Shown: piece by piece, positions 17,929 to 45,379 of the stretch
How the letters are laid out: each line of letters begins with the position of its first letter
How positions within the stretch are numbered: position 1 is the first letter of the stretch
Sequence record: PV435126.1
Reading direction: 5' to 3' (one strand)
DNA length: 64,000 nt
From: Escherichia phage EPFV3-03/2025
The notes under the pieces: model-generated
Told to the model about the DNA's origin: nothing
The model's database searches: none
Seen by the model: the letters and a program-made list of their open reading frames with translations, nothing else
Made by a program: the position numbers and the translations under genes

Positions 17929-18038
17929 TGTTGCACCCCCTCTTCATCCTCATGATGTTTCTTTTCACGCTTGTGTTTTTTCTTAAGCTCAAGCGCAATC
18001 TCTTTTTTGTACGCCTTCTTCAAGGCCTTTTTAGCCAT
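17926..18038 (-). CDS. small lysine-rich protein (about 37 aa, below the ORF-track cutoff)
   Basis: ATG preceded by gaggagg RBS; translation MAKKALKKAYKKEIALELKKKHKREKK..; consensus TTGACA-N17-TATAAT promoter upstream on the minus strand. Confidence 0.4.
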
Positions 18039-18100
18039 TTGGCACCTCCTCTGCTTTCATTACGCTAATTATAACCAACTTAACAAGACTTTGTCAACAA

Positions 18101-18592
18101 TTAGTCAACCTGAACCCAACCGCCTGCTACCTTTTTAAACATTCTTTGGTTATCGCTGCCTCGGAATGGTTTCTTGGTTGGTAAATCTTTTACATACTTT
18201 CCATCAATGACGATATCAGCCAGTTTAAGAACATCACTAGAGATATGCTCAAATGTGAACCCAGTATACACAAGAATAGTTTTCTTGTCACCAAACTTTT
18301 CCTTAATTCTCCTCATAAGGTCAATAATACCTGGCTCATTATAAGTAGCCAAAGGCTCTCCACCAAGTAAAGAAATACCGCATACAGATTCATTGTCTAA
18401 ATCCAACAAAATTTTCTGCAAATCTTCTTCGGTGAACTCTCTTCCTTTATCTTTTGACCAAAATGCTTGATTAAAGCAACCAGGACAAGCGTGTGGGCAC
18501 CCAGATACCCACAAAGCTGTCCTAATACCTGGTCCCTCGGTGTAAGATATCTCTGTATACCCGACAATATTCATACATACTCCGCATCGCAT
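18101..18592 (-). CDS. nrdG: anaerobic ribonucleotide reductase activating protein
   Basis: 163 aa; radical-SAM-type cysteine cluster GCPHACPGC; directly downstream of nrdD. Confidence 0.8.
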   Translation of the reverse strand: MRCGVCMNIVGYTEISYTEGPGIRTALWVSGCPHACPGCFNQAFWSKDKGREFTEEDLQKILLDLDNESVCGISLLGGEPLATYNEPGIIDLMRRIKEKFGDKKTILVYTGFTFEHISSDVLKLADIVIDGKYVKDLPTKKPFRGSDNQRMFKKVAGGWVQVD

Positions 18593-18750
18593 TTAGGACA
18601 ATGCCAAATAAAATCGTCCAGTGCCTTACACCAACGAAGATTGCAATGACAACCACACTTGCAAATTTTATAAATACCTGTAGACATACTGCACCTCCTA
18701 GTTTACTGTGTAACAACAATATGCCACATCCTTGTGACTTTTGTCAAGTA

Positions 18751-19713
18751 TCAGCAACCACAACTTCCGTAGTGCTTAACCCGTTCTATAACCTCCGCTT
18801 GCTTACCTTTATTGTAAGGACGAGAGTTTGGACTGGACAGATACCCGGATACGCGTCTGATCACACTGATCGTTCCTTCTTCATGGTTTCCACATTCTGG
18901 GCATACAAAGCCTTTAGCTGTTGCACTGAACTCACCAGAGAATCCACACTTAAGACATTTATCCACAGGCTGGTTAATACCAAAATACATAATGTGTTTA
19001 TATCCGAAATCAACAAGAGCTTCCAAAGCATCTAAGTTGTTTTTCAGATTTGGTGTCTCTATGTACCCAATGTTGCCACCAGAGGAGATCATAGCAAAAC
19101 CTTCCTCATACTTCCACTTATCAAAAGGCGAGCTATTGATCCATACTGGCTGATGGAAACTGTTGGTGAGGTATTCATGCTCGTGCTTCAACACTTCTGG
19201 GTATTCACGATCCAGACAGGTTGCAGCTTTATAGCATAAACTCTCAGAAGGTGTGCCGTACAAGCTAAATGCTAGTCCACTTTCCTTCTTGTATCGCTCA
19301 CAAGCATCTTTCATGTGCTGAAGGATTCCAAGAGCTAAAGCCTTGTCACCCTCTCTGCCCAAAATCTGACAGGTTTCATACACACCAATATACCCAATAC
19401 TGATGGAAGCGTACCCGTCATAGAAGAGTTTATCGATACTCTCTTCAGGATCCAGGCGAGCAAGAGCTCCTTCACACCACATGATAGGGTTCTGCCCTGC
19501 CTTTGTTCCTTTTAGACGGTTAACCCTTACAAGGTGAGCCTCATATGCCAAATCCAAATATTCGTCAAGAACTGCAAAGAAATCAACACCTTCCGTTTTA
19601 GCTTTTGCCGCAATCATTGGTAGGTTAAGGCTAACAACACCCAAGTTGAATCTGCCAAGGTATTTCTCCTCGCCTGTTACAGGGTCGCTATATTTCGATA
19701 AGAAACTTCTACA
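18751..19713 (-). CDS. nrdD: anaerobic ribonucleotide reductase, exon 2
   Basis: Begins at CRSFLS; C-terminal glycyl-radical motif RVSGY and cysteine tail CGC. Confidence 0.8.
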   Translation of the reverse strand, partial: CRSFLSKYSDPVTGEEKYLGRFNLGVVSLNLPMIAAKAKTEGVDFFAVLDEYLDLAYEAHLVRVNRLKGTKAGQNPIMWCEGALARLDPEESIDKLFYDGYASISIGYIGVYETCQILGREGDKALALGILQHMKDACERYKKESGLAFSLYGTPSESLCYKAATCLDREYPEVLKHEHEYLTNSFHQPVWINSSPFDKWKYEEGFAMISSGGNIGYIETPNLKNNLDALEALVDFGYKHIMYFGINQPVDKCLKCGFSGEFSATAKGFVCPECGNHEEGTISVIRRVSGYLSSPNSRPYNKGKQAEVIERVKHYGSCGC

Positions 19714-20475
19714 CATTATGTTCAAGGTGGTTCGCAAGGCCACCCCCGCACCTTTACGTGCTGCTGCATGTCCCCATGCAGATCAGACTATATCTTCACA
19801 CTTAGTGTGTCTACCATTTCGAGTGTCATCAGCTTACACCCTACACCGCTACATTCATCACGGTTAGTCGTTAGGCATTTCGTAACAGAACTCGTAATCA
19901 TAGTTATTAGGTGCACCACGTTTCAGGATAGCAGATATTCTTTTTCTATCTATTCCTAAAACATCAGCACAACATCTCAGACTCTTAAAGTGAATAACCA
20001 CACCAGTTAATTTGTGGGTGGCTTTCACCCCGTGACATCTTGTGTAAAAAGCATAACAGTTGTTGTCGTATCCTTCTTGAGTATTGTCTGGGCAAGCTCC
20101 CCACTCAAGGTTGTATACGCTGTTATCTTTCCTGTTGTCACCTTTGTGCTTAACATATGGTAAATTGTCTGGATTTGGTAAAAACGCTTCAGCAACAAGT
20201 CTGTGAACCCTTAGGCAAACAGTCTTTTTGTTCTTGCGTATCCTGACAAGACGGTAACCTGTGTTTATCTCTTCCCACGAATGAATAATTCTTTCATTTT
20301 CGTATCGGGTGCAATAAACATTGCCCATCTCGTCAATTTCATAACCTTCAAAATCACGAATTTGTTTTCTCATTTCAGGACTCCTCTTAGTCAGGAGTTC
20401 TGTTACGTTTAGCACGGGATTGTCCGTTCTGGAGTTTCCCCGTTTAGATAGATTTTACATGAGCAGTTATAGTTT
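19714..20475 (-). mobile_element. candidate group I intron in nrdD carrying an HNH homing endonuclease
   Basis: nrdD reading frame is interrupted; exon 1 ends in U (..atgggt) and the intervening sequence ends in G before tgt(Cys); free-standing HNH ORF inside; same arrangement as the T4 nrdD intron. Confidence 0.6.
19864..20415 (-). CDS. HNH homing endonuclease
   Basis: 183 aa; VHRLVAEAFLPNP...KHKGDNRKDNSVYNLEWG, typical HNH_3-type motif. Confidence 0.8.
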   Translation of the reverse strand: MLNVTELLTKRSPEMRKQIRDFEGYEIDEMGNVYCTRYENERIIHSWEEINTGYRLVRIRKNKKTVCLRVHRLVAEAFLPNPDNLPYVKHKGDNRKDNSVYNLEWGACPDNTQEGYDNNCYAFYTRCHGVKATHKLTGVVIHFKSLRCCADVLGIDRKRISAILKRGAPNNYDYEFCYEMPND

Positions 20476-21636
20476 ACCCATGCTTGTTACTTTGCCGTCT
20501 GTTGAACCTGTCACTTTACGATTCAGCGGAACAGAAACAAAGTCAGGATAAATCCGCTCTGCAGAACATTCTAGAGCCAATCGTTTCAAATCGTAGTTAG
20601 GATCCCCAGGGTTCATGTTGACACCCTCCTCTAAGAAGAACAGCACTTTAGGGAACACAGGTGTGATCCGTTCTTCACCAAGACCCATTTTGTGAACTTT
20701 CAAGTAGTTTTTGGTAATCATTCTACCAAAGACCGAGGTATCTAGCCCTAAACTTAATGTGATGAATGGAGTTTGCCCGTTGACAGAAGTTAACGTATTG
20801 ATTTGGTAGAGCAAAGTTTGCATACTATCAAACACGTCTTTATCTGTCATTTGCATTGCAACAGTCTCAGCATCTGGCAACCAATGTTCCTGACAAAATT
20901 TAAGGTTCTTCTCGTAGGTTGCTTCAGCATACTGTGCCAGATAATGATCAATATGGCTCATGGTCTGACCACCATATTGAGCACTAGCTACTGCACTAGA
21001 GATTTGGCTAAGGATTGTTGTTGCAACCCCTATTGACTTCGGCTTACTGACATGGGCGTTGCCAATGTTGAATCCGTTTTCCAGCATATCCGGATAATTT
21101 ACCAAACAACAGTTTGTTAACGGACTGATCAGGTAGTCAAGATCATGCACATGGATGAAGCCTTTGTTGTGCTCTTCGGAGACACGGTCTGGCAGGATCT
21201 GTGTTGATGCAAGATGTTTGCTAAGGATTCCTGCAAGCAGGTCACGATGAGTGTGTACATGATTAGTAGGCTTATTTGCGTTTTCTTTTGTAAATTCATC
21301 ACAAGTACGATCCAAGAAGCCGCTAATATCTGCAAGCAGTTTTCCACCTGCCTCTCTGTTATTATCCCTTGTCTGTCTATACTGGATGTATTCTCTGGCT
21401 GCACATTTTAAACCCATATCCATAAGAGCATCTTCAACAAGGATATGGATATTTTTTACAGAGATCGTGCACTGGTCAGTTGGCAGATTGTTGGCAACAA
21501 CTTCATTAACCGCACAGGCAATCCGGTAAGCTTCTTCTTCAGTATGTCCAGACTCAAGTAAGGCGGACTCTGCCGCCTTGATCACCTTAATTCCGTTATA
21601 AAACTCTTCTCTACCGTCCCGTTTTACAACTTTCAC
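20476..21636 (-). CDS. nrdD: anaerobic ribonucleotide reductase, exon 1
   Basis: N-terminal ATP-cone-like start MKVVKRDGREEFYNGIKV and GFIHVHDLD region; ends ..VTSMG. Confidence 0.8.
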
Positions 21637-37713: not shown

Positions 37714-37777
37714 AACTTTCTACCTCACTTGCATACTTTCCGAAACAAGTAAAGCCGGGATCGCCCCGGCTATGTTA

Positions 37778-38505: not shown

Positions 38506-39267
38506 TTACAGTTCCATAAAGTTTTCTACGATGTCAATAAATGTTTTATCAGAGAAAGCGTCAACCGCCCCGTTAAACCAAACTGGGATGCCGCGATCCT
38601 CATACTGGTAAATGTCACTACGTGAAATGCCATTCTCCCCTAAATGCTGTGAGTCGTATTTGTTAACGATCAGTAGTTTAGTCCCCTTATTACAGGCAGG
38701 GAATAGCTCCCAGTTAAAATTGATAACTGTGTTGGAGCACCCTACAAGGATAACCATATCATTGCTCGTCAGAGAAGTCAACAGGTCATACATGTCTACA
38801 TACTTTGGAGCTACTTCTCCGAAGAACACTACATTAGGCTTGACCCAAGTATACTCGCTTGCATCTACCTCAGAGTATCCAATGTCTTTAATTACGTCAT
38901 TCCCTTCATCATCCTCATAAACTATTTCTGGCAAATACCCGTGGACATGCAAAATATCTTCATGTTTTACACCAGCACGCTCCAGCAAATCATCTACATT
39001 GGTGGTCAGGTTGATCACACGACCAGACCAGCGGGAATACCACTCAGCGATCCGGAGATGTGCAAGGTTAGGCTCAACACTCCCCAAAGCTACACGCCGT
39101 GCATTGTAAAAGTCATGTACCTTATAGTAGTTCTTGGCAAAGGTGTGGATGTTACACACCTCATCGATGCTGAAATTCTCCCACATTGCAGTGCCACCAG
39201 ATCGGAAAGTTGGGATACCAGATTCAGCGCTCAAACCAGCACCGGAGATAATGATCAGTCGTCGCAT
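38506..39267 (-). CDS. Sir2-family (sirtuin-like) NAD-dependent protein
   Basis: 253 aa; GAGLSAESGIPTFRS, NLTTNVDDLLERAG..HVHG and KPNVVFFGE match the three Sir2 signature regions; no CxxC zinc module seen. Confidence 0.75.
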   Translation of the reverse strand: MRRLIIISGAGLSAESGIPTFRSGGTAMWENFSIDEVCNIHTFAKNYYKVHDFYNARRVALGSVEPNLAHLRIAEWYSRWSGRVINLTTNVDDLLERAGVKHEDILHVHGYLPEIVYEDDEGNDVIKDIGYSEVDASEYTWVKPNVVFFGEVAPKYVDMYDLLTSLTSNDMVILVGCSNTVINFNWELFPACNKGTKLLIVNKYDSQHLGENGISRSDIYQYEDRGIPVWFNGAVDAFSDKTFIDIVENFMEL

Positions 39268-41678: not shown

Positions 41679-42029
41679 ATGAAAGAGGAGGATAAGCTGC
41701 CATACCTTAAAGTCCCATTTGGAATACTGTCTATGTCAAAAGTTTTGAATGATACAACTGGAGAGGTTGTTGTTCTTGACTTGTATGACAAGATCGTATA
41801 CTGCTACCTGCACAACTGGTATAAGCTTGGAGGAAATTCACGCTTCACACCCAGCACAAGGAAAATTGCAGCAGATGTTGGGATAAAGAAAACAAAAGCA
41901 GCAGCGTGCGTTAAAACTTTAGAATGTGCAGGCGTGGTTGAAATATCCACACAAGGGAGAGGTAAAAGATGCACATTTTCCAAAGTTTTGCCACCAGAAG
42001 AGGTTATTCGAATGTCAACAACTGGTTAG
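41679..42029 (+). CDS. winged-helix DNA-binding protein, candidate initiator or repressor
   Basis: 116 aa; STRKIAADVGIKKTKAAACVKTLECAGVV helix-turn-helix-like segment; followed by an iteron array. Confidence 0.5.
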   Translation: MKEEDKLPYLKVPFGILSMSKVLNDTTGEVVVLDLYDKIVYCYLHNWYKLGGNSRFTPSTRKIAADVGIKKTKAAACVKTLECAGVVEISTQGRGKRCTFSKVLPPEEVIRMSTTG

Positions 42030-42090: not shown

Positions 42091-42176
42091 CAGAGGGTAG
42101 TAACTGTCCGTAATACGGACACTACTGCCCGTCACGCGGACACATCTGCCCGTAATACGGACACTAACTGTCCGCA
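42091..42176. repeat. four tandem 21-22 bp repeats each containing the dyad GyCCG-N5-CGGAC
   Basis: taactgtccgtaatacggacac / tactgcccgtcacgcggacac / atctgcccgtaatacggacac / taactgtccgcaatacggacac, directly abutting. Confidence 0.85.
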
Positions 42177-42690
42177 ATACGGACACATAAAGAATATAAC
42201 TAAAATAACTAAATAATAAAAAATAAAAGATCTAGTACTTATGGTACTAAAGTACATATACTTAACTTATGTAGAATATACTAGATCCTAAGTACCATGT
42301 TTTAAATTTATTACTTACTATTGGTAGTGTCGGCCCTTCATTGGCACTCGCCTACGAGGGGCGAGATGCCGGGCCTCCATAGTGCACACAATAACAGGAG
42401 TGCATACATGCAGGACTGTTAACATGTGTGGGAGCGAAGCGATAGCGCAGGCCAAAGGCCGAGCACTAATGTGGACCACCGACGAAAGCTTGCCAGCGCC
42501 GTAAGGAGTCGGTTGAGAGCCTCCCGCGAGAGTTTAGTTAAAGTTTATGTGTGGAAACGGACAGGAAGGCCCCTAAATCGCCACACAGCTGCGTAAACTA
42601 TACCAAGTAAGGCAATCGCACCAGTTTGATAGAAAAGCTCGTTACAAAGCGATACAGTGAGTTTTTCTATAACTTGAAGAGGAGGCAGTT

Positions 42691-44566: not shown

Positions 44567-44641
44567 GCCCTGTTAGCTTAGTGGATAAAGCAGCGGCCTT
44601 CTAAGCCGTTGACACTGGTTCGAGTCCAGTACGGGGTGCCA
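44567..44641 (+). tRNA. tRNA-Arg (anticodon UCU)
   Basis: Cloverleaf by eye: acceptor gccctgt/acggggt, anticodon loop cttctaa, T-loop ttcgagt, encoded CCA. Confidence 0.75.
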
Positions 44642-44645
44642 AATT

Positions 44646-44732
44646 GGGGAGTTATCCCGTAGAGGTAGCGGTGTAGACTGTAAATCTATTGTCATTGCGA
44701 CTCGGGTGGTTCGACTCCACCACTCCCCACCA
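44646..44732 (+). tRNA. tRNA-Tyr (anticodon GUA)
   Basis: Acceptor ggggagt/actcccc, anticodon loop ctgtaaa, long variable arm, T-loop ttcgact, CCA. Confidence 0.75.
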
Positions 44733-44856
44733 AATTTATATTTTTAAATGCATAAATCATACAGATAATGACATTGATATTTATCGTCGTTTATACTAGT
44801 CACTAACTGCTCGAAAATCAGTGTCATTATCAGTGTAATTTATAAAGGAGGGTAGG

Positions 44857-44947
44857 GAGCAATGGTGCTCAAGCGGTCTTGAAAACCGTCCCGTTGAGGA
44901 TGACTCGATGATGGTTCGATTCCATTACTCTCCGCCACATTGTTGAC
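44857..44947 (+). tRNA. tRNA-Ser (anticodon UGA)
   Basis: Acceptor ggagggt/actctcc, anticodon stem-loop gcggt-cttgaaa-accgt, long variable arm, T-loop ttcgatt, CCA; exact 5' end uncertain. Confidence 0.6.
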
Positions 44948-45035
44948 CTTGTAATTAAGCGAAAGCCGGAAGCAGAACCGGATTATCAAATGTTACAGTC
45001 GTCATCGCCGACTAGCCACATGGTCAACATATTGC

Positions 45036-45134
45036 GCTAGGTAAGCCCTTTGGCAAGGGCGAGGATTTTTAATCCTGAAAATAGACGAGGTAGTCGTTGA
45101 ATACATAGGTGGTTCGATTCCATCACCTAGCACC
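45036..45134 (+). tRNA. atypical oversized tRNA-like element (about 99 nt; anticodon uncertain, loop candidate tttttaa)
   Basis: Perfect 7-bp acceptor pairing gctaggt/acctagc, D-arm gccc-tttggcaa-gggc, T-arm ggtgg-ttcgatt-ccatc, but about 30 nt between anticodon arm and T-arm. Confidence 0.4.
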
Positions 45135-45139
45135 TTTTT

Positions 45140-45215
45140 GCTGATGTAGCACAATTGGCAGTGCAATTGATTTGTAATCAATAGGTTGCAGGTTCGAGTC
45201 CTGCCATCAGCACCA
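45140..45215 (+). tRNA. tRNA-Thr (anticodon UGU)
   Basis: Acceptor gctgatg/catcagc, anticodon stem-loop attga-tttgtaa-tcaat, T-loop ttcgagt, CCA. Confidence 0.75.
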
Positions 45216-45216
45216 T

Positions 45217-45291
45217 GGCCCTGTAGCTGGAAGGTTCAAGCAAGCGACTCATAATCGCCAGACGGTGGTTCAATTCCACCCAGGGCCACCA
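45217..45291 (+). tRNA. tRNA-Met or Ile2 (anticodon CAU)
   Basis: Acceptor ggccctg/cagggcc, anticodon loop ctcataa, T-loop ttcaatt, CCA. Confidence 0.7.
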
Positions 45292-45303
45292 AATAATAAA
45301 TAC

Positions 45304-45379
45304 TCCGCGTAGCTCAGCTTGGTAGAGCGCCTGATTTGGGATCAGGAGGTCGAGTGTTCGAATCACTCCGTGGAGACCA
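45304..45379 (+). tRNA. tRNA-Pro (anticodon UGG)
   Basis: Acceptor ctccgcg/cgtggag with C1-G72, anticodon stem-loop cctga-tttggga-tcagg, T-loop ttcgaat, CCA. Confidence 0.7.

Follow-up and report, generated by a model that had tools for sequence, protein, structure and literature searches.

The window analyzed here is a stretch of 64,000 nucleotides of Escherichia phage EPFV3-03/2025 (sequence record PV435126.1). It carries on its minus strand a gene for a protein of the Sir2 (sirtuin) family, the third gene of a compact unit that also encodes an Rnl1-type RNA ligase, a predicted cyclic-phosphate-processing receiver domain (cREC) and a MazG-like nucleotide pyrophosphohydrolase. A polynucleotide-kinase-like protein and a calcineurin-like metallophosphoesterase are encoded next to this unit, and the genes for the RNA ligase, cREC, kinase, MazG-like protein and phosphoesterase are all at most 2.4 kb from that of the sirtuin. 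An earlier account made from the letters of the DNA (here called the sequence-only reading) had recognized a phage-encoded Sir2-family protein and suggested that it might act on host targets as a protein ADP-ribosyltransferase or deacylase, or might interfere with immunity based on nicotinamide adenine dinucleotide (NAD+). Our preferred reading, to which we assign a probability of roughly 45%, is that the protein is a CobB-type NAD-dependent deacylase that would be co-expressed with the repair module. The sirtuin itself is already known: it is annotated in Escherichia phage FV3, belongs to a named phage family, and its neighborhood has been analyzed in print. Both the existing annotation and the published RNA-repair context (Iyer et al. 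2022) had escaped the sequence-only reading.

Sequence, fold and class of the phage sirtuin

Membership of the open reading frame in the Sir2 family is far beyond chance. The Pfam SIR2 profile PF02146 matched the product over profile positions 1–178 of 180 with E = 8e-27 and 94.7 bits, the gathering score being 24, and the family phrog_2162, "Sir2 (NAD-dependent deacetylase)", matched residues 1–252 with E = 8e-109. The three signature blocks named by the sequence-only reading were found at residues 9–23 (GAGLSAESGIPTFRS), at residues 88–110, which comprise TTNVDDLLERAG (88–99) and HVHG (107–110), and at residues 143–151 (KPNVVFFGE). Its remark that the zinc-binding CxxC pairs are absent was also borne out. 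The protein has three Cys residues in total (38, 177 and 192), and there is none between the catalytic His109 and Lys143, so that no CxxC pair can be present.

The loss of the metal site does not extend to the segment that would carry it. The zinc module has 32–33 residues, compared with 35 in E. coli CobB, and an AlphaFold2 (AF2) model built it confidently as a beta-hairpin, with a predicted local distance difference test score (pLDDT) of 93–96 for this block. Judging from the alignment and the model, the module is kept at full length and the Cys ligands of the metal alone are replaced. The region of the zinc site, residues 111–142, is free of Cys in the present protein and has at most one Cys in 119 of the 121 family members that were aligned. 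The protein is acidic, with an isoelectric point (pI) of 4.7; the median of the clade is 5.1, and the corresponding values are 5.5 for the CobB core and 9.4 for KptA. The gene is under strong purifying selection, the ratio of nonsynonymous to synonymous substitution rates (dN/dS) being 0.078 when measured against a homologue of 93% identity.

Residue invariance was scored over the same alignment of 121 family members. The catalytic His and the NAD-binding residues are all present and are invariant across the family: G9, A10, G11 and S13; S16 and G17; F21 and R22; N90 and D92; H109 and G110; K143 and P144; F148, F149 and E151; G176 and S178; and N202 occur in all 121 sequences. The Tyr-x-x-Arg pair of class III sirtuins (Y54 and R57) is likewise present in every member, and the motif FYNARR that contains it is identical in E. 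coli CobB. For the acyl pocket we used CobB positions A76, Y92, I131 and V187, which were read from PDB sequence differences as engineered variants of acyl specificity. They correspond to C38, Y54, V91 and V146 of the phage protein, all of which are invariant or nearly so. By alignment, the catalytic and acyl-pocket residues are intact.

A profile search against PDB entries ranked E. coli CobB first (1s5p, E = 1e-29), followed by Sir2Af2 and Sir2Af1 and then by SIRT5. The AF2 model (pLDDT 89.3, predicted template modeling score 0.88) has the predicted sirtuin fold of a Rossmann domain and a small domain. When it was compared with known structures by Foldseek, CobB was again the best match (E = 2e-18, template modeling score normalized to the target 0.83–0.85), ahead of Sir2Af1 and SIRT5. 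CobB (1S5P, 6RXJ) is collinear with phage residues 3–207 and shares with them the elements GAGxS, FR, N-x-D, HG, FGE and GxS besides FYNARR. It differs in having four zinc-binding Cys where the phage protein has none and in having Ala76 at the position of the invariant Cys38; furthermore, the phage protein, unlike CobB, is encoded by a phage within an RNA-repair unit. By sequence and by modeled fold, the phage sirtuin groups with the class III deacylases CobB and SIRT5 and not with the defense NADases.

A defense-type Sir2 was considered and rejected. PADLOC returned a single partial match of 13.5 bits, to PDC-S65, and no defense-type Sir2 was among the top 50 Foldseek matches of the AF2 model. 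Classification by profile and by fold therefore placed the protein with deacylase sirtuins (CobB, Sir2Af1, SIRT5) and not with Sir2-like NADases such as ThsA, DSR or Sir2-HerA, and the framing of the sequence-only reading in terms of NAD-depleting defense found no support.

The gene unit and its surroundings

The genes and features of the locus are collected in Table 1. The Rnl1-type ligase gene is the first of the unit and its stop codon overlaps the start of the cREC gene by 4 nt. A gap of 8 nt separates cREC from the sirtuin gene, which starts with ATG and has a ribosome-binding site, GAGGA, 6 nt 5' of the start. The MazG-like gene, the last of the unit, begins 14 nt past the sirtuin stop and has the ribosome-binding site GGAGG. 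The flanks are as the sequence-only reading described them, with the MazG-like gene downstream and the genes for cREC and the RNA ligase upstream. The hairpin that follows the MazG-like gene is likely, from its sequence, to be the end of the four-gene Rnl1-cREC-sirtuin-MazG unit, which we infer to be expressed as one transcript. A consensus scan called no minus-strand promoter 5' of the Rnl1 gene; by eye, a perfect TTGACA with a weak -10 element can be seen there. In the alignment of cREC, residues D9, D10, D51 and D53 are invariant.

Table 1. Positions of genes and other features around the sirtuin gene (numbering of the window)
Feature	Position	Strand	Matches and remarks
DNA ligase, ATP-dependent, 427 aa	35866..37149	-	Pfam/PHROGs scans
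Terminator-like GC-rich hairpin and T-run	37753..37771	-	6 nt past the MazG-like stop
MazG-like nucleotide pyrophosphohydrolase, 237 aa	37778..38491	-	phrog_671 E = 5e-22; no Pfam match
Sirtuin, 253 aa	38506..39267	-	CobB-like class III, zinc-less phage clade phrog_2162; same as FV3 gp077
cREC, predicted cyclic-phosphate-processing receiver domain, 116 aa	39276..39626	-	Pfam PF20274 E = 2e-14
Rnl1-type ATP-dependent RNA ligase, 311 aa	39623..40558	-	Pfam PF09511 E = 4e-15; phrog_562 E = 1e-65
P-loop polynucleotide-kinase-like kinase, 136 aa	40659..41069	+	Pfam AAA_33 E = 5e-11; phrog_2071, phrog_505 (polynucleotide kinase)
Calcineurin-like metallophosphoesterase, 184 aa	41077..41631	+	Pfam Metallophos E = 6e-6; phrog_547 E = 3e-52
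Palindrome array	42101..42186		4 tandem copies
tRNA cluster	44567..45379		7 tRNAs (ARAGORN)

The kinase and metallophosphoesterase genes are transcribed divergently from the four-gene unit, and the phosphoesterase is a candidate for an RNA 3'-end healing enzyme. With the unit placed back to back with these two genes, the sirtuin is probably made together with a kit for the repair of RNA breaks. About 5 kb from there is a cluster of tRNA genes.

Several other features of the window were recorded. The palindrome array lies just 3' of 41679–42029, a gene annotated in FV3 as "replication initiation protein / transcriptional regulator". Its copies are spaced 21–22 nt apart, each holds the palindrome TGTCCG-TAATA-CGGACA, and in sequence it resembles an array of iterons or operators. 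For the tRNA cluster, 5 tRNAs are given in the RefSeq record of FV3, compared with 7 called here. The extra call at 45036–45134 is a tRNA-like element of 99 nt whose anticodon has four bases (atcc); it also exceeds the gathering score of Rfam for tRNA (35.5 bits). The other, at 44847–44937, is a tRNA-Ser(tga) that was called by ARAGORN and not by Rfam. In FV3, nrdD (anaerobic ribonucleotide reductase) is annotated in two pieces, FV3_00106 and FV3_00108, split by an HNH homing endonuclease, FV3_00107 (85636–88554 of the FV3 record, or about 18030–20950 of the window by conversion from FV3 coordinates).

Relatives and conservation of the gene context

Over the 4.2 kb around the sirtuin gene, identity is 98.7–98.8% with the Escherichia phages vB_EcoM_SYGMH1 and FV3 and 94–97% with about 120 further rV5-like records (Vequintavirinae). 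The window belongs to phage FV3, an rV5-like Vequintavirus. The protein is 100% identical to the FV3 "putative Sir2-like protein" (locus tag FV3_00077, gp077). By tblastn, homologues were found in 1006 phage records; that of T5 has 58% identity and is annotated "cobb: putative transferase", and others occur in T5-like Salmonella and Klebsiella phages, in Klebsiella phages of about 145 kb and in Vibrio and Serratia phages of about 250–360 kb. An exhaustive search of 1.84 billion representative proteins returned 5769 clusters with E <= 1e-3, and 74 when the threshold was E <= 1e-30. The nearest zinc-containing relatives, by cluster look-up, are almost all metagenomic proteins, with one "Bacteriophage sp." and one Neptunomonas metagenome-assembled genome. 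Among the database matches, 18–25 GenBank "Campylobacter phage" records (MG065652, MG065674 and others; host C. jejuni) are 92–94% identical to the present E. coli rV5-like phage, and short records, about 2.7 kb long and labeled "Listeria phage" or "Salmonella phage", contain a sirtuin of the T5 type. In such records the host seems to have been wrongly assigned or the sequence to be a contaminant.

The combination of a phage sirtuin with RNA-repair genes was described by Iyer, Burroughs, Anantharaman and Aravind (Iyer et al. 2022; Viruses 14:1977, PMC9503650, section 3.7.3). Their neighborhood type 2, "Escherichia phage V5 / Proteus phage Mydo", has a sirtuin, a T4-like tRNA ligase, cREC, a nucleotide kinase, MazG and sometimes a calcineurin-like phosphoesterase. 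The present sirtuin belongs to this clade and has the same neighbors, and nothing structural sets it apart. Vibrio phages KVP40, phiSt2 and phiGrn1 have Sir2/CobB proteins of 44–48% identity over about 79% of the query, with NAD-salvage neighbors (Nampt, NMNAT) instead of Rnl1 and cREC. The absence of zinc ligands from the Vibrio phage homologues was reported together with a proposed CobB-like deacetylase role, the deacetylation of host Acs, on the basis of in-silico analysis and transcript profiling only (Skliros et al. 2016; PMC5107563). A "phage Sir2" in the NARP3 paper proved to be "anti-phage Sir2-HerA" and no phage sirtuin.

How far the linkage to RNA repair holds was examined in a census that covered 67 sirtuin loci; 64 were taken from IMG/VR, and the others were those of T5, Klebsiella phage K54_rec1 and Serratia phage BF. 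The loci are not phylogenetically independent. Flanks of up to 10 kb on each side were covered, and of 5 kb for the three GenBank loci. The Rnl1/kinase/phosphoesterase/MazG/DNA-ligase set was present, whole or in part and in several gene orders, at 14 of the 67 loci. A DNA ligase gene was near the sirtuin at 16; in contigs of about 94–149 kb, whose sirtuins are 54–57% identical, it is only 33–57 nt away. The T5-like loci (29 of 67) have instead a HAD_SAK_2 "Swiss-army-knife RNA repair" phosphatase gene 20–530 nt from the sirtuin, together with DUF7415 genes. The neighbors in phage BF are a 2H protein, a Nudix-cREC fusion, Nampt and NMNAT. RNA-repair genes were absent from about 20 of the 67 loci, where Pfam and PHROGs scans gave phrog_8514 (unknown), phrog_757 ("DNA methyltransferase") and DUF7275/DUF7277 as neighbors. 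A conserved phrog_8514 protein of about 215 amino acids precedes the sirtuin in loci L035 (9237–9878), L043 (9062–9736) and L054 (8839–9501), and in L035 and L043 a phrog_757 gene is found farther upstream still. The phrog_8514 protein is another possible functional partner.

The comparison was also made in reverse. Among 54 cREC loci of viral contigs, searched with a sirtuin HMM, a sirtuin gene was within 8 kb in 8 only. Loci L077 and L078 have cREC, phosphoesterase, Rnl1, kinase, DNA ligase and MazG genes in a cluster from which the sirtuin is absent, and partial clusters of this kind were found in L079 (where Rnl1 and kinase were not detected) and L080. For L077–L079, the same contigs encode the sirtuin at a distance of tens of kb (loci L036, L034 and L035). 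A universal linkage of sirtuin and RNA repair is thus rejected by the 67-locus census in favor of a lineage-specific one, and the linkage is less universal than Iyer et al. (2022) imply.

A Nampt-like gene is found within 8 kb of the sirtuin at 12 of the 67 loci, in several unrelated phage lineages (0.7–8 kb away in L003, L025, L026, L030, L033, L047, L052, L056, L061 and L063–L065). The association of the sirtuin with NAD salvage is about as recurrent as that with cREC. Nampt-like genes are also close to the sirtuin-less repair clusters of L077–L080. Searches of the window by tblastn with BF, T5 and KptA queries gave nothing significant for Nampt, NMNAT, 2H, HAD_SAK or KptA. In phage BF, the 2H protein gp110 (L003, 4281–4727; 148 amino acids, annotated "RNA ligase") matches anti-CBASS Acb1 (PF23474, E = 4e-15) above the 2'-5' RNA ligase family. 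The "RNA repair" neighborhood of this jumbo phage could therefore equally be an anti-signaling island.

Possible function of the phage sirtuin

If the protein is a CobB-type deacylase, NAD+ would be bound in the Rossmann cleft, C1'' of its nicotinamide ribose would be attacked by an oxygen of the substrate with release of nicotinamide, and His109 would be the general base. The substrate would most likely be a protein acyl-lysine: the intact hydrophobic pocket, the Tyr/Arg pair and the CobB-like acidity point to the usual chemistry of sirtuins and to a substrate that resembles acyl-lysine. Because the Tyr-x-x-Arg pair of SIRT5 and CobB is retained, the acyl group may be negatively charged, of the succinyl or malonyl type. 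A speculative target, by analogy with the reactivation of acetyl-CoA synthetase by CobB, would be a lysine of a co-expressed enzyme that is inactivated by acylation. In another, unpublished variant, the sirtuin might keep the RNA and DNA ligases encoded beside it from being inactivated by acylation of their catalytic lysines. Among the roles that the sequence-only reading had put forward, a deacylase fits best, and interference with NAD-based immunity is left without specific support.

A number of observations weigh against this assignment. The context offers no obvious protein-modification partner; the neighbors are RNA-end and nucleotide phosphoesterases, and it was from this context that Iyer et al. 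(2022) reached a different proposal. The Gln of the "TQNID" motif is replaced by Thr89 in all 121 sequences, the "VYP" substrate-staple motif of CobB is "VIN" in the phage clade, and the zinc ligands are lost across the clade, each of which may signal another substrate. Thr89 and the loss of Cys go together in 150 representatives at 50% identity (Thr89 with 0–1 Cys, 35; Gln with at least 4 Cys, 74; off-diagonal, 17); as the correlation is probably phylogenetic, it was not used as functional evidence. All NCBIfam CobB models scored far below their cut-offs, at half or less, the best scores (NF040867, NF001753 and others) being 120.9 bits against 243 and 102.3 against 320, so that the protein is a divergent relative of CobB and not a CobB orthologue. 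The host has its own CobB, which leaves the need for a phage copy unexplained. Finally, full-text literature searches found no experimental characterization of any phage sirtuin.

The published proposal is that the sirtuin is an analogue of KptA/Tpt1, an RNA 2'-phosphotransferase that strips 2'-phosphates from RNA with NAD+ (Iyer et al. 2022), and we rank it second but think it rather improbable. In such a route, cREC would act on a cleaved tRNA and open its 2',3'-cyclic phosphate so that a 2'-phosphate is left; the kinase would phosphorylate the 5' end and Rnl1 would seal the break. The sirtuin would then move the 2'-phosphate of the junction to NAD+. Of the two products, nicotinamide and ADP-ribose 1''-2'' cyclic phosphate, the latter could be cleared by cREC, the phosphoesterase or MazG, and the route would mirror that of yeast Trl1/Tpt1. 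A more general form, in which zinc-less sirtuins are nucleic-acid-directed analogues of Tpt1/KptA with a sirtuin fold and cREC is the cyclic phosphodiesterase of a yeast-type pathway rebuilt in phage, we hold to be unlikely. The tight packing of the sirtuin with Rnl1 and cREC beside the kinase and phosphoesterase, the nearby tRNA cluster and the recurrence of the same gene set in another order in the contigs of about 94–149 kb and in K54_rec1 all speak for a role in RNA repair, as do the RNA-end enzymes that accompany the sirtuin in independent neighborhoods, namely HAD_SAK_2 in the T5-like phages and both 2H and Nudix-cREC in phage BF. In the tRNA repair of fungi and plants, KptA/Tpt1 likewise consumes NAD+ and liberates nicotinamide, acting after an RNA ligase. 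In formal terms the two reactions correspond, with attack on C1'' of NAD+ by an oxygen nucleophile (Iyer et al. 2022). The Pfam scans found no Macro domain in ten neighbors in the window and ten in T5, BF and the Klebsiella phage, which we counted in favor of this proposal. Nevertheless, KptA/Tpt1 has an unrelated fold (ADP-ribosyltransferase) and no homology to the phage sirtuin, the hydrophobic acyl-lysine pocket is conserved and not remodeled, and the acidity of the clade stands against the basic pI of KptA. The kinase, phosphoesterase and Rnl1 already make up a complete T4-type heal-and-seal set, and heal-and-seal repair of the T4 Pnkp/Rnl1 type leaves no 2'-phosphate. Activity on nucleic acid is not known for any sirtuin. 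The linkage to repair genes is lineage-specific and broken in several lineages, and the T5-like loci showed no RNA ligase gene up to 10 kb from the sirtuin. Moreover, KptA was found in none of the 54 cREC loci (phmmer with a single E. coli KptA query, at BLAST/phmmer sensitivity); its absence from the sirtuin-less cREC clusters means that there is no evidence of analogous displacement.

The roles that remain from the sequence-only reading, an enzyme directed at host targets, either an NAD+ glycohydrolase or a protein ADP-ribosyltransferase, or a protein that perturbs immunity based on NAD or ADP-ribose signals, perhaps together with phage NAD-salvage genes, seem to us quite unlikely. Defense Sir2 NADases (ThsA, DSR1/2, Sir2-HerA, SPARSA) and SirTM share the Sir2 Rossmann fold and the NAD+ substrate, and many defense Sir2 domains likewise lack the zinc module. 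Nampt-like genes recur near the sirtuin in several lineages (664 nt away in L063 and 1 kb away in BF), an NMNAT-Nudix gene lies about 3 kb from the BF sirtuin, the 2H neighbor there resembles Acb1, and the change of the Gln to Thr89 and the loss of VYP could weaken the use of peptide substrates. On the other hand, the phage sirtuin is a single-domain protein that has no similarity to models of defense NADase Sir2, no fused sensor or partner domain, and no SLOG, HerA or pAgo partner among the neighbors scanned; SirTM is macro-linked, unlike the phage protein. Its nearest relatives are all deacylases, the invariant acyl pocket and Tyr-x-x-Arg pair would not be needed by a plain NADase, the window has no Nampt, NMNAT or 2H homologue by tblastn, and the phage itself would suffer from depletion of NAD+. 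That the protein is a remnant without catalysis, decayed or of structural use only, is very improbable: the zinc site is lost and a conserved Gln is substituted, but dN/dS is low, the catalytic residues are invariant, the zinc-less module is modeled confidently and about 1000 phage records of diverse lineages retain the family. The probabilities that we give to these four readings leave a remainder that is assigned to none of them.

In summary, if the phage sirtuin is a CobB-like deacylase, as we favor, it would be one more phage auxiliary enzyme, of modest interest in itself, in a large family that includes those of the model phages T5 and rV5. If the KptA-like proposal were true, it would be the first sirtuin acting on RNA, and a fungal-type tRNA repair would operate in phages. 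The phage clade also provides a natural case of a sirtuin small domain without a zinc site, which bears on how this domain is stabilized.

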